A DNA stretch of 64,000 nucleotides from Escherichia coli. Its GTDB lineage: Bacteria > Pseudomonadota > Gammaproteobacteria > Enterobacterales > Enterobacteriaceae. Location: the NCBI RefSeq assembly GCF_041886205.1, contig NZ_CP169029.1; one strand, written 5' to 3'. Shown in pieces: positions 1,705 to 25,866 of this stretch. The stretch's first letter is position 1; each line of letters begins with the position of its first letter. The notes below the pieces were generated by a model that was not told the origin of the DNA, searched no databases, and worked only from the letters and a program-made list of their open reading frames with translations. Made by a program: the position numbers and the translations under genes.

Positions 1705-2319
1705 TTATTCTTCAATCGCTAACAATTGCAATGAACCACGGCTAAAATCCGCCAGCTTTGCGGAAAATTCAGCCACTTTCGCCGCCGGAAGCGCCACCCG
1801 CAGCAGAACGAATGCCTGATAATCACTGTTGATAATTTTGCCGTCACACTGCCCCAGCAACGCTTCAATGCCGGTTAACTGACTATATTCACATTGCAAA
1901 GTATATTCGGTTAATGGCGTCTTGCGTTGGGTCGTTAGCTGGCGCAGCGCCTGATTCACGCCGCCGCCATACGCTTTCACTAACCCACCGGTGCCAAGCA
2001 ATATGCCACCGTAGTAGCGCACTACCACAGCGGTAATTTCCCCGACGCCGCTGCCCATTAGCTGGGCGAGCATCGGTTTACCTGCCGTTCCTGCCGGCTC
2101 CCCGTCGTCAGAGAAACCCAGCTGTTGAGAATCATCCGGCGCACCCGCCACCCACGCCACGCAATGGTGGCGGGCATCGGGGTGTTCTGCCCGCACCGAT
2201 TCAACAAACGCTTTCGCCGCCTCAACGCCATCGGTATGCGCCAACAGTGTTATGAAGCGGCTCTTTTTGATCTCTTCAACGACCGTGACCGGTGCCGCAG
2301 GAATTAACCAGCTTTCCAT
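1705..2319 (-). CDS. yigZ: IMPACT-family protein YigZ
   Basis: 204-aa ORF from the ATG at 2317..2319 ([10 protein letters not shown]...); the start overlaps the pepQ stop by 1 nt. Confidence 0.9.
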   Translation of the reverse strand: MESWLIPAAPVTVVEEIKKSRFITLLAHTDGVEAAKAFVESVRAEHPDARHHCVAWVAGAPDDSQQLGFSDDGEPAGTAGKPMLAQLMGSGVGEITAVVVRYYGGILLGTGGLVKAYGGGVNQALRQLTTQRKTPLTEYTLQCEYSQLTGIEALLGQCDGKIINSDYQAFVLLRVALPAAKVAEFSAKLADFSRGSLQLLAIEE

Positions 2320-3650
2320 CACGCCAGTTTCAGATCCCGGGTCATGTTTTCCACGTTGTTTTCGTGGATCACCACGTTGTCTTCGATACGAATGCCGCCG
2401 AACGGTTTCAGTGCTTCAATTTTCTGCCAGTTGAAGTGCTTGCTGAACTGCCCTTCACGCCACGGTGCCAGTAGCGATTCAATGAAGTAGATACCCGGTT
2501 CGATGGTTAACACCATGCCCGGCTGGAGAATACGGGTGCAGCGCAGGTACGGATATTTTGCCGGTGCCGCGAGGTGTGTACCGCTATCATCCTGCATAAA
2601 ACCGGCTACGTCATGCACCTGCAGGCCCAGCGGATGACCGATACCATGCGGCATAAACGGTCCGGTGAGATTGTTTTCGACCATCGCTTCTTCACTCATA
2701 TCGGTGATGATTTGATGTTTACGCAGCAATTTGGCGATACGCTGATGGAACTGGATGTGGTAATCCACATAGCTGACGCCAGCTTTCATGGTGGCGATCA
2801 GCGCAAGTTGTTCATCATTTACGTCTTTCACCAGCTGTGCGTAGTCGTTGTCGCTTTTTGCCGACCAGGTACGGGTCAGGTCAGCCGCATAGCCGTTATA
2901 TTCGGTCCCGGCATCCAGCAGGAAGCTGCGCATCTCTTCCGGCGCCTGATGATCCAGTTTGGTGTAATGCAGCACCGCAGCGTGTTCGTTGAGCGCCACA
3001 ATGTTGCTGTAAGGCACGTCGGTATCACGATGACCGGTCGCGGTCAGATAGGCAATGTTGATATCGAACTCGCTCATGCCAGAACGGAACGCTTCTTCTG
3101 CCGCGCGATGACCGTTGACCGCCATTTTCTGCGCTTCACGCATACAGGCCAGTTCGTACTCGGTTTTGAAGGAGCGATAGTAATGCAGGTAGTCGATCAC
3201 CCCTTTCGGGTTGATGTTGCTGGCCTCAATACCCAGTTGCAGCGCACGTTCCGGCACCGGACCGATATAACCGATATTGCCGCGCGCAGCAGGCAGCAGG
3301 CTACCAATGCCATCGGCTTTCGGCAGCGCGATCACTTCCACATCTTCAGTCCAGAAGGAGGTCGGCAGCGGTTCGACGTTGTGCCAGTAATCAACCGGCA
3401 GATAGAACCACAGTTTCGGCTTATTCACGCCATCCACCAGCAACCAGCAGTTTGGTACCTGAGTTACCGGCACCCACGCTTTGAATTGCGGGTTCACTTT
3501 AAACGGATAGGGATGATCGTCGAGAAAAACGTTGAACAGTTCGCCGGAGTGAATAAGTAACGCATCCAGCTTGAAGCGCGTCAGCGCATCGCGAGTCCGT
3601 TCCTGCAATGTAGCTATATGATTTTTATAGAGCGAGGCCAGTGATTCCAT
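2319..3650 (-). CDS. pepQ: Xaa-Pro dipeptidase (prolidase) PepQ
   Basis: 443-aa [22 protein letters not shown]...; M24-type metallopeptidase; divergent from fadB. Confidence 0.95.
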
Positions 3651-3797
3651 TTTTTACCCTTCTGTTTTTTTGACCTTAAGTCTCCGCATCTTAGCACATC
3701 GTTCATCCAGAGCGTGATTTCTGCCGAGCGTGATCAGATCGGCATTTCTTTAATCTTTTATTTGCATATTTTTAACACAAAATACACACTTCGATGC

Positions 3798-3839: not shown

Positions 3840-6029
3840 ATGCTTTACAAAGGCGACACCCTGTACCTTGACTGGCTGGAAGATGGCATTGCCGAACTGG
3901 TATTTGATGCCCCAGGTTCAGTTAATAAACTCGACACTGCGACCGTCGCCAGCCTTGGCGAGGCCATCGGCGTGCTGGAACAGCAATCAGATCTAAAAGG
4001 GCTGCTACTGCGTTCGAACAAAGCAGCCTTTATCGTCGGTGCTGATATCACCGAATTTTTGTCCCTGTTCCTCGTTCCTGAAGAACAGTTAAGTCAGTGG
4101 CTGCACTTTGCCAATAGCGTGTTTAATCGCCTGGAAGATCTGCCGGTGCCGACCATTGCTGCCGTCAACAGCTATGCGCTGGGCGGTGGCTGCGAATGCG
4201 TGCTGGCGACCGATTATCGTCTGGCGACGCCGGATCTGCGCATCGGTCTGCCGGAAACCAAACTGGGCATCATGCCGGGCTTTGGCGGTTCTGTACGTAT
4301 GCCACGTATGCTGGGCGCTGACAGTGCGCTGGAAATCATTGCCGCCGGTAAAGATGTCGGCGCGGATCAGGCGCTGAAAATCGGTCTGGTGGATGGGGTA
4401 GTCAAAGCAGAAAAACTGGTTGAAGGGGCGATGGCGATTTTACGCCAGGCCATTAACGGCGACCTCGACTGGAAAGCAAAACGTCAGCCGAAGCTGGAAC
4501 CGCTAAAACTGAGCAAGATTGAAGCCACCATGAGCTTCACCATCGCTAAAGGGATGGTCGCACAAACGGCGGGGAAACATTATCCGGCCCCCATCACCGC
4601 AGTAAAAACCATTGAAGCTGCGGCCCGTTTTGGTCGTGAAGAAGCCTTAAATCTGGAAAACAAAAGTTTTGTCCCGCTGGCACATACCAACGAAGCCCGC
4701 GCACTGGTCGGCATTTTCCTTAATGATCAATATGTAAAAGGCAAAGCGAAGAAACTCACCAAAGACGTTGAAACACCGAAACAGGCCGCTGTACTGGGCG
4801 CAGGCATTATGGGCGGCGGTATCGCTTACCAGTCTGCGTGGAAAGGCGTGCCGGTTGTCATGAAAGATATCAACGACAAGTCGTTAGCCCTCGGCATGAC
4901 TGAAGCCGCGAAACTACTGAACAAGCAGCTTGAGCGCGGCAAGATCGATGGTCTGAAACTGGCTGGCGTGATCTCCACGATCCACCCAACGCTCGACTAC
5001 GCCGGATTTGACCGCGTGGATGTTGTGGTAGAAGCGGTTGTCGAAAACCCGAAAGTGAAAAAAGCCGTACTGGCAGAAACCGAGCAGAAAGTACGCCCGG
5101 ATACCGTGCTGGCGTCTAACACTTCAACCATTCCTATCAGCGAACTGGCCAACGCGCTGGAACGTCCGGAAAACTTCTGCGGGATGCACTTCTTTAACCC
5201 GGTCCACCGAATGCCGTTGGTGGAAATTATTCGCGGCGAGAAAAGCTCCGACGAAACCATCGCGAAAGTCGTCGCCTGGGCGAGCAAGATGGGCAAAACG
5301 CCGATTGTGGTTAACGACTGCCCCGGCTTCTTCGTCAACCGCGTGCTGTTCCCGTATTTCGCCGGTTTCAGCCAGTTGCTGCGCGACGGCGCGGATTTCC
5401 GCAAGATCGACAAAGTGATGGAAAAACAGTTTGGCTGGCCGATGGGTCCGGCATATCTGCTGGATGTCGTGGGCATTGATACCGCGCATCACGCTCAGGC
5501 TGTCATGGCAGCAGGCTTCCCGCAGCGGATGCAGAAAGATTATCGCGATGCCATCGACGCGCTGTTTGATGCCAACCGCTTTGGTCAGAAGAACGGCCTC
5601 GGTTTCTGGCATTATAAAGAAGACAGCAAAGGTAAGCCGAAGAAAGAAGAAGACGCCGCTGTTGACGACCTGCTGGCAGAAGTGAGCCAGCCGAAGCGCG
5701 ATTTCAGCGAAGAAGAGATTATCGCCCGCATGATGATCCCGATGGTCAACGAAGTGGTCCGCTGTCTGGAAGAGGGCATTATCGCCACTCCGGCGGAAGC
5801 GGATATGGCGCTGGTCTACGGCCTGGGCTTCCCTCCGTTCCACGGCGGCGCGTTCCGCTGGCTGGACACCCTCGGTAGCGCAAAATACCTCGATATGGCA
5901 CAGCAATATCAGCACCTCGGCCCGCTGTATGAAGTGCCGGAAGGTCTGCGTAATAAAGCGCGTCATAACGAACCGTACTATCCTCCGGTTGAGCCAGCCC
6001 GTCCGGTTGGCGACCTGAAAACGGCTTAA
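3840..6029 (+). CDS. fadB: Fatty-acid oxidation complex alpha subunit (enoyl-CoA hydratase / 3-hydroxyacyl-CoA dehydrogenase) FadB
   Basis: 729-aa product from [22 protein letters not shown]...; the ORF-track start at 3714 is an upstream in-frame extension. Confidence 0.95.
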
Positions 6030-18542: not shown

Positions 18543-19358
18543 ATGGCAACAACACAACAATCTGGATTTGCACCTGCTGCATCGCCTCTCGCTTCGACCA
18601 TCGTTCAGACCCCGGACGACGCGATTGTGGCGGGCTTCACCTCTATCCCTTCACAAGGGGATAACATGCCTGCTTACCATGCCAGACCAAAGCAAAGCGA
18701 TGCCCCACTGCCAGTGGTCATTGTAGTGCAGGAAATTTTTGGCGTGCATGAACATATCCGCGACATTTGTCGCCGTCTGGCGCTGGAGGGGTATCTGGCT
18801 ATCGCACCTGAACTTTACTTCCGCGAAGGCGATCCGAATGATTTTGCCGATATCCCCACGTTGCTTAGCGGTCTGGTAGCAAAAGTGCCTGACTCGCAGG
18901 TGCTGGCCGATCTCGATCATGTCGCCAGTTGGGCTTCCCGCAACGGCGGCGATGTTCATCGTTTAATGATCACCGGATTCTGCTGGGGTGGACGTATCAC
19001 CTGGCTGTATGCCGCGCATAATCCACAGCTAAAAGCTGCAGTGGCGTGGTACGGCAAACTGACGGGCGACAAGTCGCTGAATTCACCGAAACAACCTGTT
19101 GATATCGCAACCGATCTTAACGCGCCGGTTCTCGGCTTATATGGCGGTCTGGATAACAGTATTCCGCAGGAGAGCGTTGAAACCATGCGCCAGGCGCTGC
19201 GGGCTGCTAATGCGAAAGCAGAGATTATCGTGTACCCGGATGCCGGGCATGCATTCAACGCTGATTATCGCCCGAGCTATCATGCCGAATCTGCGAAAGA
19301 TGGCTGGCAGCGAATGTTGGAATGGTTTAAGCGGTATGGTGGGAAGAAGTCGCTGTAA
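18543..19358 (+). CDS. ysgA: Dienelactone hydrolase-family protein YsgA
   Basis: 271-aa product from [18 protein letters not shown]..., preceded by GGAGAA; the ORF-track start at 18477 is an upstream extension. Confidence 0.88.
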
Positions 19359-19397
19359 TGAGAAAAGACCGGGTGGTATTACCACCCGGTTTGGATT

Positions 19398-21659
19398 TTA
19401 CCCCCGACGCAAGTTCTGCGCCGCCTGCACCATGTTCGCCAGTGCCGCGCGGGTTTCTGGCCAGCCGCGCGTTTTCAGGCCACAGTCCGGGTTGACCCAC
19501 AGGCGCTCTGCCGGAATGCGTTTTGCCGCTTTCTTCAGCAGGGCTTTAATCCATTCCACGCTCGGTACGTTTGGCGAGTGAATGTCATAGACGCCTGGAC
19601 CGATTTCATTCGGATAATCAAACTCTTCGAACGACTCCAGCAACTCCATGTCAGAACGCGAAGTTTCGATGGTAATCACATCCGCATCCAGCGCCGCAAT
19701 GGAATCCATGATGTCGTTGAACTCGCAATAACACATGTGAGTGTGGATTTGTGTGTCATCTTTCGCCACGGCGGCGTTGATACGGAAGGCCTCTACGCCC
19801 CACTGGAGATAGGCGTCCCAGTCGCTACGACGCAGCGGTAAACCTTCGCGCAGCGCCGGTTCGTCAATCTGGATGATACCAATCCCTGCCGCTTCCAGAT
19901 CGGCCACCTCATCACGCAGCGCCAGCGCAATCTGTTTGGCGATGGTTTCACGGCTGACATCTTCACGCGGGAACGACCAGCAGAGTATGGTCACCGGCCC
20001 CGTCAGCATCCCTTTCACCGGTTTGTCGGTCAGCGATTGCGCATACTTCGCCCACTCCACGGTAATCGGTGCCGGGCGGCTAATGTCACCAATGACAATC
20101 GGTGGCTTCACGCAGCGGGAACCGTAGCTCTGTACCCAACCGTTTTGCGTAAAGACAAATCCGTCGAGGTGCTCGCCAAAGTATTCCACCATGTCATTAC
20201 GCTCGGCCTCGCCATGTACCAGCACATCCAGTCCCAAACGTTCCTGCTCAACAATGGCCTGCTTGATATGTTCCGCAATGCCCGTGCGGTAGTTGTTGGC
20301 GTCGAGATTACCCTTTTTGAAATCCAGACGCAGGGTACGAATTTCCGTGGTTTGCGGGAAAGAACCAATCGTGGTGGTCGGCCACGCTGGCAGTTTAAAA
20401 CGCGCACGCTGGGCTTCGGCACGCACTTCATAGACATTCGCACGCTGGCTGTCCTGGGCGGTGATCGCCGCCAGACGCTTTTCTACCGCCGGATTATGTA
20501 CACGAGTAGAGTGACGACGCGCCTGAATTGGGGCGCTCCACTCTGCCAGAGCTGCCGTGTCACCACTGTTCAGCGCATCGCGCAGCAGTGCCAGTTCATG
20601 GCATTTTTGTAGGGCGAAGGCAAACCAGCTTTTCACTTCTGCATCAAGACGCGTTTCCACGCTCAGGTCGATGGGGCTGTGCAGCAACGAGCAGGAAGAT
20701 GCCACCCACAAATCACGTTTGCCGACAATGTCCTTAATTTGCGCATATTTCTCGGTAAGATCGGCGCGCCAGACGTTACGACCATTGATCAGACCCGCAG
20801 ACAGCAACCAGTCAGAAGGTAGGCGCTTGTGCAGTTCAGCAACGTCATCTTTACCATGTACAAGGTCCACATGCAGCCCCTGAACAGGCAGCGCAGTAAT
20901 CGTGTCGAGGTTTGGCGTTACGCCTTCAAAATAGGTGGTCAGCAGCAGTTTCACCTGGCCCTGGAGCGCGTCGTAAGCGGGTTTGTATGCGTCCAGCCAC
21001 GCCTGCGGTAGTTCCAGTACCAGCGCGGGTTCGTCGATCTGTACCCACTCAATGCCGCGTTTTGCCAGTTCTGCCAGCACTTGCTGATAAACCGGCAGAA
21101 TGTCGTTCAGCAGGCTCAGGCGGTCAAATTGTTCACCTTTCACTTTCCCCAGCCACAGCCAGGTAACCGGCCCCAGCAGCACAGGTTTCACCTTGTGGCC
21201 CAGCGCCAGCGCCTCGTCCACTTCGTCCAGCAGCTGCGTCCAGGTCAGTTTGAACTGTTGGCCTTTAACGAACTCCGGCACCATGTAGTGATAGTTGGTG
21301 TTAAACCATTTGGTCATTTCCGCTGCCGCCGCAGGTTCGCCAGTTGGCGCACGTCCACGACCAATACGGAACAGGGTGTCGATATCTACCGAACCATCTT
21401 TGTTCTGATGACGTGGCGGAACATTACCCAGCAGCAGACTGGTGGTCAGTACATGATCATACCAGGCAAAATCGCCCACCGGCAGCAGGTCGATACCCGC
21501 TTGCTTTTGTTGATCCCAGTGACGAGCACGCAATTCACGCCCTACCGCCAGCAGTTCTTCACGCGTGGAGTTCCCCGCCCAATAACTCTCTTGCGCTTTT
21601 TTCAGCTCGCGACGCAGGCCAACGCGAGGGAAACCGAGGGTGTGATTAAGAATTGTCAT
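19398..21659 (-). CDS. metE: Cobalamin-independent methionine synthase MetE
   Basis: 753-aa [32 protein letters not shown]... Confidence 0.97.
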
Positions 21660-21776
21660 TATATGCCCCTTATGGAATTTTTAGTATTTAGCCGTCCAGA
21701 TGTTTACACATCCATAATTGGCGGTTACTGTATATTCCTCAAGCGCAAATTATTCATGCCGAAGTGAAGGACTTTC

Positions 21777-22730
21777 ATGATCGAAGTAAAACACCTGAAA
21801 ACGCTACAAGCGTTGCGGAACTGCGGCTCTCTCGCAGCCGCTGCGGCGACGTTGCATCAGACGCAATCCGCCCTGTCTCACCAGTTTAGCGATCTGGAAC
21901 AACGCCTTGGCTTCCGGCTATTTGTGCGTAAGAGCCAGCCGCTACGCTTTACACCGCAGGGAGAAATCCTGTTGCAACTGGCAAACCAGGTGCTGCCGCA
22001 AATCAGCCAGGCACTGCAAGCCTGCAATGAACCGCAGCAGACGCGTCTGCGCATTGCCATTGAGTGCCATAGCTGTATTCAGTGGCTGACGCCCGCGTTA
22101 GAAAATTTCCATAAGAACTGGCCGCAGGTAGAGATGGATTTTAAATCGGGCGTGACGTTTGACCCGCAGCCTGCGTTGCAACAGGGCGAGCTGGATCTGG
22201 TGATGACCTCCGATATCCTGCCGCGCAGTGGCCTGCATTATTCGCCGATGTTCGATTATGAAGTACGCCTGGTGTTAGCGCCTGACCATCCACTGGCGGC
22301 AAAAACGCGTATTACACCGGAAGATCTCGCCAGCGAGACGCTATTAATTTATCCGGTGCAGCGTAGTCGACTGGATGTCTGGCGGCATTTTCTTCAGCCG
22401 GCAGGCGTCAGCCCGTCACTGAAAAGCGTCGATAACACCTTATTGTTGATTCAGATGGTTGCCGCGCGGATGGGTATTGCCGCGCTACCGCATTGGGTAG
22501 TAGAGAGTTTTGAGCGCCAGGGTCTGGTGGTCACCAAAACCCTGGGCGAAGGCTTGTGGAGCCGACTGTACGCCGCCGTGCGCGATGGCGAGCAGCGTCA
22601 GCCGATTACAGAAGCATTTATTCGCTCAGCGCGCAATCACGCCTGCGATCATCTGCCGTTTGTGAAGAGCGCGGAGCGACCCACTTACGATGCACCCACA
22701 GTGAGGCCAGGATCACCAGCGCGCCTGTAA
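21777..22730 (+). CDS. metR: LysR-family transcriptional activator MetR
   Basis: 317-aa [44 protein letters not shown]... with HTH; divergent from metE. Confidence 0.95.
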
Positions 22731-23517
22731 TAAACGTTGGCCAGTGCGGCTGTTGGTGCCAGATAGCCAGGTTAACCAGCAGCCCTGCCGGAACGTGCAT
22801 ATTATTCATAATGCCCAGCGTTCCGGCGTCCACCTGCGTCGCGCCGTAGTTCCACATAAAGTAGCCAATCCCGGAAGCCACCACGCCAAGAAACACCAGA
22901 ATGCCCCATTGCAGCGTGGTTTGCGGCATTTTCTGCGCATTTCCCAGCAAGAACCATGCAATTACCGCCACCAGGAACGCGCCAAGATAGAACCACGCAA
23001 AGGCGTTATGCTGCGGCATCGGGCGAGTTTCCATCAGGCGTTTGTAACCCACCATGCCGATGGCAAAAGTGATATTGGAGAGTTGCACCAGCAACAAGCC
23101 AGTCCAGAAATGGTCGGTGACCTGATCATAGCGAATAATCCCGGCACCAATCACCGCCAACAAGGCACTAAAAGCATATCCCCAGCGCAGACGGCGCTTA
23201 CTCATGATGTCATAAATCAGCGTGATGTAGAGCGGCGTCAGTACGGTGAACAACAGCAGTTCGGAGACCGTCAGGTAGAGATAGGCGCGGAAACTCAGCA
23301 TATACATCACGCCAAGCTGCATCGCGCCCACCAGCATATACAGGCCGACTGTTTTCAGGCTATTGCCACGGGTACGCAGAAACGGCAGAAAAACGAGCGC
23401 CGCCAGGCCAACTCGCACCAGCACCGCAAAATAGCTATCGACGTGCCCCGCAAGGTACTCGCCATAAAAGCTAAAGGAGAAGGCCCACAGAATCGTGGTG
23501 ATGATAAGTAGCGCCAC
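22618..23517 (-). CDS. yigM: EamA/DMT-family membrane transporter YigM (BioP)
   Basis: 299-aa [20 protein letters not shown]..., about 10 TM segments; its 3' end overlaps the metR 3' end by 113 nt (convergent). Confidence 0.9.
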
Positions 23518-23608
23518 ACTGGAAAACTCTTTGATTAACGAGTATCCATTGTAGCGAAGTATCAGGTTGACAACTGTTTAATGTTTGCTCAATCGTGTGC
23601 GTTTTTAC

Positions 23609-23941
23609 TCATCGTCCAACGTTACCCGCTGCAACGAAAAGTAGTTGATTAATAATGGATTCACGCGCGCTCTCCACGCTCAGATTCCAGTACTTGGTGT
23701 CGAGAGCCAGTTTCATAAAAGGCGCGTGCCAGTCTTGTTCTCTTTTTTCAAAAACCACTTCAGCGACTTTATAGCCCGTCCAGCTACGATACAAATGCAA
23801 AACGTTATTCTCAAAATAGATAAACCATTTGTATTCCATCGCTGGAGGAATAAACCCCATTTCCAGATTACGCATTTGCGCTTCATCTAACGTCAAATTA
23901 AGCTCAACCCTCTGCCAGTCAACGGTAAATGCTTTGAGGTT
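23609..23941 (-). CDS. Candidate small protein of unknown function (110 aa) between yigL and yigM
   Basis: ORF from ATG 23939..23941 (MTKATKQSWHNLKAFTVDWQRVELNLTLDEAQMRNLEMGF...) with AGGGA about 9 nt upstream; fits exactly in the gap between the yigL terminator hairpin and the yigM start; no family recognised. Confidence 0.35.
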   Translation of the reverse strand, partial: NLKAFTVDWQRVELNLTLDEAQMRNLEMGFIPPAMEYKWFIYFENNVLHLYRSWTGYKVAEVVFEKREQDWHAPFMKLALDTKYWNLSVESARESIINQLLFVAAGNVGR

Positions 23942-24035
23942 ATGCCAGCTTTGCTTCGTCGCTTTTGTCATGCGTATTCCCTGCCTGGTTTTTAAGTGCT
24001 CTCCCGCAATCAACGTAATGCGGGAGAGGCTGGCA

Positions 24036-24836
24036 TTAACTGAGATAGAGTTTACGCAGATAATGCGGTACCGCGTCGTCGGCATTAGTACCAATCACTT
24101 CCAGCTCTGGATGCAGATCTTTCAGCCGTTGATGCGCGCTGCCCATAATGCAGCCTTTCCCCGCCATCGACAGCATTTCGGCGTCGTTCATCCCGTCACC
24201 AAAGGCAATACAATCCTTCAGGCTGTAGCCCAGTTTCTTCGCCACCGCTTCCAGCGCATGGCCTTTCGACACGCCGCCCGCCATCACTTCCAGACAGGTT
24301 AAGGTAGAGAAACTGACGTTGACGCGATCGCCCCAGCGAGCGTTAATCGCCTGCTCCAGCGGCAGCAGTTGTTCATGGGAATCGCAGGTGAAGAACACTT
24401 TGCTGACGCCTTCCGGCTCCAGTAATCCAGGCTCATACAGCGCATATTTGAACACCGCTTCTTTAAAAAAGCGCATCTCTTCCGGGCGATGGCGATTCAT
24501 AAACCATTCGTCGTCGCGATAAACGTTAGTAATGATGTCCGGATTGTCGTTGACCACACCAAACAGATCGCTGGCAATGTCGCGATCCAGGTTATGAGCA
24601 AAAATCAGATTACCATCCAGATCGTGAACGCGCGCGCCATTGGAGGTAATCATGTAAGACTTGATCTCCAGATTATCGCGAATTTGCCCCACATCGACGT
24701 GATGGCGACCAGTCGCAAACACAAAGTTGATACCGCGCGCGGTAAGCAGCTTCAGAGTTTCTTTGGCGTAAGGAGATAACGTATGGTCGGGAGAAAGTAA
24801 CGTGCCATCTAAATCAGACGCAACAACCTGGTACAT
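24036..24836 (-). CDS. yigL: HAD-superfamily (Cof-like) sugar-phosphate phosphatase YigL
   Basis: 266-aa product from MYQVVASDLDGTLLSPDHTL... with HAD motif DxDGT; the ORF-track start at 24962 is an upstream extension into pldB. Confidence 0.93.
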   Translation of the reverse strand: MYQVVASDLDGTLLSPDHTLSPYAKETLKLLTARGINFVFATGRHHVDVGQIRDNLEIKSYMITSNGARVHDLDGNLIFAHNLDRDIASDLFGVVNDNPDIITNVYRDDEWFMNRHRPEEMRFFKEAVFKYALYEPGLLEPEGVSKVFFTCDSHEQLLPLEQAINARWGDRVNVSFSTLTCLEVMAGGVSKGHALEAVAKKLGYSLKDCIAFGDGMNDAEMLSMAGKGCIMGSAHQRLKDLHPELEVIGTNADDAVPHYLRKLYLS

Positions 24837-24843
24837 AAGAAAT

Positions 24844-25866
24844 TTAAACCTCTGTAGAGCGGTTTCCGCTGGGTGAGTTATGCCTGTTGAAAAAATCAAC
24901 AATGGCGTGGAGCGCGACTGAGCGCATTGCGTCCTTTTCAAAAAGGATCTCATGGTAAGCACCTTTAATTACCAACGGTCGTCCCCCTTCGACAGGATAG
25001 CCCGCGGCGGTGCGGAGTTCACAAAAACGGTCATGCATGCGGTTATCCACCACGCGTTCCTCTTCAGCCTGCAAGAGAAGCGTTGGCGTGGCGTCATCAC
25101 CCGCACCGGCTAACACCTGTTCGCCAGCCAGAATACTTTCGCGTACCCAATGGTAGGTCGGCCCACCGACGCGAATCGTTGGGTCATCAGCATAGAAGCG
25201 TAAGTTACGTCGATATCGCTGTCTGCTGTGGGTCAGTACGTTGATAGCAAACGGCAACGCGCGCCAGCGCCCGGTGCCTATTGCATAGCCATCACGGAAA
25301 CGTGGATGCGCTTCGGCCCAGTTGAGGATCTGCCGTGCCATAAATGACGGCATACGAATCACGATCCCAAACATTGGCGCAGTTAGCGCAATGGCGTCAC
25401 ATACACCTGGATGGCGTTGCAGAAATAATGTGGAGATCGCACCGCCCATCGAATGTGCCAGTATATAGCGTTTACGCCACGGACCGGGCTGAACCTCCTG
25501 CTGCCAGAATGCCGCCAGATCATCAACATAATCATTAAAGCGATTAACATGCCCGAGATGCGGATCGGCTAACAGGCGACCGGAACGTCCCTGCCCGCGA
25601 TGGTCGATGATTAAGACATCAAACCCCAAATGGAACAGGTCGTAGGCCAGTTCCGCATATTTTACGTAGCTCTCAATACGCCCCGGGCAGATGACTACCA
25701 CCCGGTCATGGTGCTGTGCGCGAAAACGGACAAAGCGCACCGGAATGTCATCCACACCAGTAAACTCTGCTTCATCACGCTGACGCCAGAAATCAGTCAG
25801 CGGTCCCATGGTAAAAGCAGCAAACGCGTTTTCTCTTGTTTCCCAGTCTTTTTGCTGCTGAAACAT
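24844..25866 (-). CDS. pldB: Lysophospholipase L2 PldB
   Basis: 340-aa ORF MFQQQKDWETRENAFAAFTMGPLTDFWRQRDE...; alpha/beta hydrolase with GHSMGG. Confidence 0.95.
   Translation of the reverse strand: MFQQQKDWETRENAFAAFTMGPLTDFWRQRDEAEFTGVDDIPVRFVRFRAQHHDRVVVICPGRIESYVKYAELAYDLFHLGFDVLIIDHRGQGRSGRLLADPHLGHVNRFNDYVDDLAAFWQQEVQPGPWRKRYILAHSMGGAISTLFLQRHPGVCDAIALTAPMFGIVIRMPSFMARQILNWAEAHPRFRDGYAIGTGRWRALPFAINVLTHSRQRYRRNLRFYADDPTIRVGGPTYHWVRESILAGEQVLAGAGDDATPTLLLQAEEERVVDNRMHDRFCELRTAAGYPVEGGRPLVIKGAYHEILFEKDAMRSVALHAIVDFFNRHNSPSGNRSTEV

Follow-up and report, generated by a model that had tools for sequence, protein, structure and literature searches.

The 113-nt convergent overlap of metR and yigM (bioP) in Escherichia coli: conservation in Enterobacterales and strand-wise constraint

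The window analysed here is a stretch of 64,000 nt of Escherichia coli DNA. Within it, metR and yigM (also named bioP) run towards each other and share their 3' ends. The open reading frame (ORF) listing gives the following arrangement.

21777..22730, + strand: metR coding sequence, ATG start, 317 aa and a TAA stop
22618..23517, - strand: yigM (= bioP) coding sequence, GTG start, 299 aa and a TAA stop
22618..22730, both strands: convergent metR/yigM overlap of 113 nt, phase 123:132

MetR is a LysR-type activator of metE and metH. In a profile search it matches the NCBIfam MetR equivalog NF011950 over residues 1-317 (741 bits), and it contains the Pfam domains HTH_1 at residues 5-63 and LysR_substrate at 86-288. 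YigM, whose second EamA repeat extends to residue 275, matches TIGR00950 (310 bits) and the EamA family; it is classed as a DMT/EamA-family biotin transporter and carries the RefSeq name 'bioP: biotin transporter'. Both partners are bona fide conserved protein-coding genes, with thousands of homologues and, for bioP, a published function.

The overlap contains MetR residues 281-317 and the metR stop on one strand, and YigM residues 263-299 and the yigM stop on the other. The ORF listing reproduces both ends, so that the coordinates given for the 113-nt overlap in the original prediction are exact, as is its estimate of about 37 codons per gene. In codon terms, metR position 1 faces yigM position 1, position 2 faces 3 and position 3 faces 2. 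Both annotated C-termini are the first in-frame stops. The tails are treated here as annotated, that is as predicted, on the assumption that translation runs up to the first in-frame stop.

The overlap is real, but it was known before, both from annotation and from the literature. Côté et al. (2016, mBio, PMC5120140) stated that metR and yigM overlap in E. coli K-12, and reported the function of bioP (yigM) as a biotin transporter. The feature described here is identical to that K-12 overlap (Côté et al., 2016; RefSeq/EcoCyc), with no difference. Their paper contains no analysis of conservation or of strand-wise constraint, and what is added here is the conservation and a map of which strand is constrained where. 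Neither Pallejà 2008 nor bioRxiv 724807 mentions metR or yigM.

Of 5426 complete E. coli genomes, 5423 contain the stretch, and the genes annotated under it are metR and 'bioP: biotin transporter'. E. coli LHM10-1 is 100% identical to the query over 22300-23000, and its RefSeq annotation (locus L001) places metR at 1978..2931 and bioP at 2819..3718, which is again an overlap of 113 nt. In K-12 MG1655, RefSeq has bioP at 4011076..4011975 and metR at 4011863..4012816, with the identical 113-nt overlap. An annotation artefact, in which one of the C-termini would be wrong through a sequencing error, a frameshift or an earlier stop, is extremely improbable in the light of these figures: the ORF ends are identical in 5423 of the 5426 genomes, the same ends recur without indels in about 75 other species (from the best 80 of at least 562 matches), and conservation extends to P302 in MetR and to P282 in YigM, both points lying inside the overlap. 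The observation on its side is a single Citrobacter braakii MetR (P0006, 323 aa, from one genome), which is frameshifted after HLPFVR and passes through the overlap region in another frame; either a genuine mutation or a sequencing error may lie behind this.

Between bioP and yigL, the minus strand carries a 120-aa ORF at 23609..23971, annotated as 'hypothetical protein' WP_000158817.1 and with no Pfam match. In K-12 MG1655 bioP and yigL are only 75 nt apart, and from the sequence the ORF looks like a strain-variable insertion. The yigL ORF itself (24036..24962, - strand) has 308 aa from a GTG, against 266 aa (801 nt) in RefSeq, giving an upstream in-frame start candidate.

To assess conservation, loci were collected by a MetR-alignment scan with one genome per species. 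The best 80 of at least 562 confirmed matches were taken, and together with two E. coli records they make up the 82 loci measured. In nearly all of these 82 loci the two genes converge. An overlap of 113 nt is found in Enterobacteriaceae and Yersinia, and in most of the loci (best 80 of at least 562). Among the matches listed, an earlier metR stop shortens it to 95-98 nt in Rahnella, Hafnia, Pectobacterium, Dickeya and Brenneria, and a few species have 116 nt. Four families are represented with the overlap among the matches listed, namely Enterobacteriaceae, Yersiniaceae, Hafniaceae and Pectobacteriaceae; Erwiniaceae, Morganellaceae and Budviciaceae are absent from these best 80 of at least 562 matches.

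For 75 loci, each from a different species (from the best 80 of at least 562), there is an ungapped alignment of 1741 nt that runs from the start of metR to that of yigM. Most Enterobacteriaceae and Yersinia keep the lengths of 317 aa for MetR and 299 aa for YigM. The original prediction had pointed to conservation of both reading frames across species as one check, and both ORF lengths are indeed conserved. The 3' ends of both ORFs are length-conserved among orthologues, which is the criterion used by Pallejà. On the basis of the species distribution, the arrangement is ancient, descending from an ancestor of at least four Enterobacterales families.

Further out, YigM homologues from Vibrio and Microbulbifer (51% identity) are encoded by genes that do not adjoin metR, and they end 2-18 residues past the last helix with unrelated tails. 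One sequence, P0243 (57% identity), was considered as an overlap-bearing outgroup and rejected, since it is probably an error-ridden Dickeya-like contig.

Constraint within the overlap was measured as the per-site diversity in the 75 species (from the best 80 of at least 562), phylogeny being ignored. Outside the overlap, the diversity at codon positions 1, 2 and 3 is 0.115, 0.048 and 0.439 in metR, and 0.18, 0.083 and 0.472 in yigM. Inside it, the pattern divides the overlap into the following parts.

22618..22623, - strand: yigM TAA stop and last codon (E299), opposite MetR F281-I282; an island of extra constraint
22624..22671, both strands: MetR-dominated half, with MetR R283-S298 opposite the YigM passenger tail 283-298
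22672..22683, both strands: dual-constraint core and switch point, with MetR A299-E300-R301-P302 opposite YigM P282-A281-V280-W279
22684..22730, both strands: YigM-dominated half, with YigM 263-278 opposite the MetR passenger tail 303-317 and the metR stop

Over 22618-22683 the second positions of metR are nearly invariant, and its third positions, which are the second positions of yigM, vary. Over 22684-22730 it is the second positions of yigM that are nearly invariant, and its third positions, the second positions of metR, that vary. The switch in these 75 species falls at 22683/22684.

The first of these halves encodes MetR R283-S298, the conserved C-terminal helix of the regulatory domain. 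The third positions of metR codons 283-298 have a diversity of 0.420, compared with the metR baseline of 0.439 (P=0.34); read as yigM second positions, the same sites (22624-22671) have this 0.420 against a yigM second-position baseline of 0.083. The other half encodes YigM 263-278, the end of the last transmembrane helix. Here the third positions of yigM codons 264-278 have a diversity of 0.481, compared with a yigM baseline of 0.472 (P=0.57), and as metR second positions the sites of 22684-22730 have 0.481 against the metR second-position baseline of 0.048.

The core is different in that synonymous sites are frozen. MetR R301 is CGA in 75/75 species and P302 is CCC in 74/75, these two codons lying opposite YigM V280 and W279. 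YigM W279, V280 and P282 are invariant in an alignment of Enterobacteriaceae only, and position 282 is K in Pectobacteriaceae. MetR 282-302 is conserved in all four families.

MetR 282-302 thus dictates the sequence of the YigM tail 283-299, and the end of the last YigM helix (GA.VI.ASLWVHR.W) dictates that of the MetR tail 303-317. Dual coding, in the sense of fewer synonymous changes imposed by the partner, is not seen across the overlap, as the two P values above indicate. The original prediction held that the overlap constrains both proteins over 37 codons. This does not stand: the constraint is split, and each tail leaves the synonymous diversity of its partner unchanged. Real dual constraint covers only about 12 nt (22672-22683), together with the last YigM codon and its TAA stop.

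The two tails have further features in common. Amino-acid diversity in the 75 species reaches 0.47 in each of them and is 0.10-0.24 in the protein bodies next to them. The MetR tail differs between species in length as well as in sequence, giving total lengths of 311-318 aa; MetR has 311-312 aa in Rahnella, Hafnia, Pectobacterium and Dickeya, and also in Citrobacter gillenii. YigM has 284-285 aa in two clusters of 42 and 66 sequences (P0195 and P0196) from E. coli-like and Salmonella lineages, one of the short variants being named Salmonella Gaminara. In Pectobacterium fontis (locus L077, about 3887), a premature YigM stop two codons after the P282 position reduces the overlap to 50 nt. The short YigM variants all end just past the constrained WVAP motif. 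The original prediction named an earlier stop used in vivo, or a frameshift in relatives, as examples of what would tell against the overlap. This is partly borne out: relatives do have earlier stops, at the MetR and YigM lengths just given, but these shorten the overlap and do not abolish it.

Structural data were also considered. The AlphaFold2 model of YigM has a mean pLDDT of 87, with residues 286-299 below 50. The MetR model, built from a 14-sequence alignment, has a mean pLDDT of 43 and is unusable, and the end of the domain was taken instead from the structure of the Neisseria meningitidis MetR regulatory domain (4ab5), which aligns to MetR residues 87-296 only.

The length of the tails was compared with what read-through would give by chance. 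In 42 long ORFs of the window, the antisense frame in phase 123:132 has 0.045 stops per codon, and the chance of its staying open is P=0.50 for 15 codons or more and P=0.45 for 17 codons or more. The tail lengths of 15 codons (MetR) and 17 codons (YigM) are therefore the chance expectation, at the median. The existence of the two ORFs themselves is not a matter of chance, both being conserved genes.

An alternative is that both tails are functional, so that this would be true dual coding with selection on both strands. The YigM tails are alike among Enterobacteriaceae and the tail lengths are conserved, as this would predict; but the likeness is a shadow of MetR conservation, since the YigM tail changes at its second positions as fast as metR does at synonymous sites (0.420 vs 0.439), and the MetR tail likewise as fast as yigM does at such sites (0.481 vs 0.472). 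Conservation of length is forced, since indels would strike the partner gene, and natural truncated variants are common. The Keio metR deletion, which inactivates YigM, could also be taken to favour functional tails. The design of that deletion reportedly leaves only the last six metR codons. YigM would then be lost from about residue 270 on, including the constrained end of its last helix, so the deletion is no test of the tail. The removal of the helix end fits the behaviour of the Keio metR mutant, which phenocopies a yigM deletion; disruption of yigM was given as the reason why this mutant is synthetically lethal with bioA and sensitive to a BioA inhibitor (Côté et al., 2016, PMC5120140). 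Also in favour of functional tails is the very end of yigM, where E299 and the TAA are invariant and the matching synonymous sites of metR are frozen. Taken together, we regard functional tails as unlikely.

This end of yigM deserves closer description. The metR third positions 22619 (F281, TTT) and 22622 (I282) are T in 75/75 species: F281 is TTT in 75/75 and the I282 codon is ATT/ACT in 75/75. Comparable invariant synonymous sites elsewhere number 0/199 in metR and 1/137 in yigM. The two positions are the middle bases of the yigM stop and of YigM E299. The yigM stop is TAA in 75/75 species, and the metR stop switches freely between TAA and TGA (34 vs 25). Retention of a stop was considered as the reason for the invariant T at 22619 and rejected, because T22619C would give TGA, which is still a stop. 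A purely neutral tail falls short here, since 22619 and 22622 are invariant in 75/75 against 0/199 elsewhere. Some selection therefore acts on the last YigM codon and the identity of its stop, or on the hexamer TTTATT/AATAAA (22617-22622) itself.

Setting this short stretch aside, we hypothesise that the overlap is the product of two abutting unrelated genes and two chance read-through passenger tails. We consider this probable, and it would need no selected function. The functional coding regions of metR and bioP would abut tail-to-tail without a spacer, presumably having been brought together by juxtaposition, and each frame would continue antisense into the neighbouring gene as far as the first stop codon met by chance. 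Read-through would thereby add a tail of 15 residues to MetR (303-317) and one of 17 residues to YigM (283-299), and the 113 nt would be made up of these passenger tails, both stop codons and about four core codons needed by both proteins. The geometry would then be held in place by the harm that indels would do to the conserved part of the partner gene, and by the position of the stops: MetR F281-I282 face the yigM TAA and YigM I263-T264 face the metR stop, all four being conserved residues. The transcripts would probably be ended by Rho, as published data indicate for the bioP strand and as we infer for metR. A neutral origin of this kind is compatible with a regulatory use that may have been gained later.

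A few genomes depart from the usual arrangement. In Serratia sp. PL17 (locus L082, 3903..4009), the two genes are separated by 107 nt inserted exactly at the switch point, behind the R301 codon. The insertion provides each gene with a 3' end of its own, and there is no overlap. YigM ends at WVAPKIISK and has 287 aa. MetR retains the tail PGAGVTSVKPLASQP, which is similar to the Yersinia tail. The Ile codon equivalent to I282 is ATC, and yigM no longer ends there. Since Yersinia, Rahnella, Rouxiella and Chimaeribacter, of the same family, carry the overlap, the separated state of PL17 is the derived one. Its descent from an overlapping state is supported by the likeness of the MetR-tail DNA to that of the Yersinia overlap (local score 12, P=0.0045). 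The same MetR-tail DNA has no detectable likeness to its own downstream copy (P=0.67), and a tandem-duplication step in the resolution of the overlap is something that we only infer. The PL17 spacer contains a GC-rich hairpin (-16 kcal/mol, z -2.1), which fails the terminator scan.

In Enterobacterales bacterium AwEntero, which is symbiont-like (locus L069), the metR ORF runs to 4122 and yigM ends at 3937, giving 186 nt in an unusual phase; this would imply insertions, deletions or decay in that lineage. In E. coli NIPH17_0020 (locus L002, 2772..2940), a deletion at the junction has left both metR and bioP as pseudogenes without C-termini. One event has thus produced a natural double knock-out of metR and bioP.

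Transcription through the junction was examined in the region around the overlap. On neither strand of 21600-23700 was an intrinsic terminator-like site found, shuffled sequences giving 2.5 +/- 1.4, and the same region contains no GC-rich hairpin with A-/T-tracts that would make a bidirectional intrinsic terminator at the junction. The promoter scan returned only the known promoter-like site between metE and metR. No Rfam match with E<=1 was found in 19000-25500, and RNA folding across the overlap is unremarkable for either strand (z -2.1 and -1.8). With no intergenic space for a terminator, and none found, each transcript must extend antisense into the partner gene. On both strands, C exceeds G within 100-250 nt past each stop, which is compatible with Rho loading, though weak evidence for it. 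Published data add the following feature.

22889, - strand (bioP sense strand): peak of a Rho-dependent termination region, K-12 position 4011704 (+) (Adams et al., 2021)

This region on the bioP strand has a Rho score of 5.07 and p=1.3e-12, with an upstream/downstream coverage of 98/21 without bicyclomycin and 300/326 with it (Adams et al., 2021, eLife, PMC7815308, supplementary file 2). The resolution of the peak is coarse, as the coverage windows are 800 nt, and the window position of about 22889, inside bioP, was converted through the K-12 annotation. At this resolution, the published data indicate only that Rho halts transcription of the bioP strand somewhere near the bioP 3' end or antisense to metR. 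Those supplementary files of Adams et al. (PMC7815308) that are in text form hold one entry for yigM and none under the name of metR.

It may be asked whether head-on transcription of this kind couples the two genes. Biotin synthesis consumes SAM. If the overlap were selected, convergent transcription would make metR and bioP mutually repressive, through polymerase collisions or 3'-end pairing, and would link methionine/SAM to biotin uptake. Without a terminator between the genes antisense read-through is unavoidable, and when Rho is inhibited transcription continues for 800 nt past the peak, over the bioP 3' end and antisense to metR. The arrangement is stable in four families, but the cost of an indel to the partner gene fully explains that stability. 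Apart from two sites, the synonymous sites of the overlap are no more conserved than the proteins require; an element acting by RNA pairing could do without such conservation, though nothing positive points to one either. Serratia sp. PL17 has its genes apart, and a literature search found no expression data joining metR and bioP. Regulation by overlapping 3' ends is known for convergent pairs, arfA/mscL being an example (PMC10070815). On balance, selection for such coupling is distinctly improbable.

A related proposal brings in the frozen hexamer. Here the Rho-checked, terminator-less convergence would make metR and bioP antagonistic in cis, and the frozen TTTATT would be a termination or RNA-processing signal for the bioP end and not a protein requirement. 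We would give this reading very little weight. The passenger-tail explanation is the one that we retain for the overlap as a whole.

Conserved convergent overlapping gene pairs of prokaryotes were reportedly described by Rogozin et al. in 2002, and the excludon concept is said to come from Sesto et al. in 2013. Like other conserved convergent overlaps, metR/yigM consists of two bona fide genes that share their 3' ends in phase 123:132, the one most often found among convergent overlaps of at least 5 nt (49%; Lillo & Krakauer, 2007, PMC2174442), and its origin fits the read-through or stop-loss model (PMC2174442, PMC2478687). It differs in its length, since 113 nt exceeds 60 bp, the limit beyond which annotated overlaps are mostly errors (Pallejà et al., 2008, PMC2478687). 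The same study found 54 possibly real long convergent overlaps, most of them conserved only in very close species, whereas metR/yigM is conserved across an order.

The metR and bioP transcription units also meet head-on, as do the bidirectional-terminator pairs in which polymerase collisions aid termination (bioRxiv 10.1101/2022.10.23.513370). Unlike those pairs, metR/bioP has no hairpin with a T-run in 21600-23700, and only the derived Serratia PL17 has an intergenic hairpin. As for arfA/mscL (PMC10070815) and for excludons, the metR and bioP transcripts must be complementary over at least 113 nt. In contrast to them, metR/bioP gives no sign of reciprocal regulation, of a functional long antisense transcript or of opposing functions.

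On the basis of these observations, the metR/yigM overlap is an ordinary and old overlap of the commonest convergent type, and it opens no new question. The sole loose ends are the invariant last codon and TAA of yigM, and the possible coupling in cis. If true, antagonism in cis would tie biotin uptake to methionine/SAM status. The overlap provides a teaching case: it is long and conserved across an order, and real dual coding is nearly absent from it. In practice, removing either metR or bioP cleanly also damages the other gene, and knock-out phenotypes need to be read with care: the Keio metR mutant is a biotin-uptake mutant as well (Côté et al., 2016, PMC5120140).
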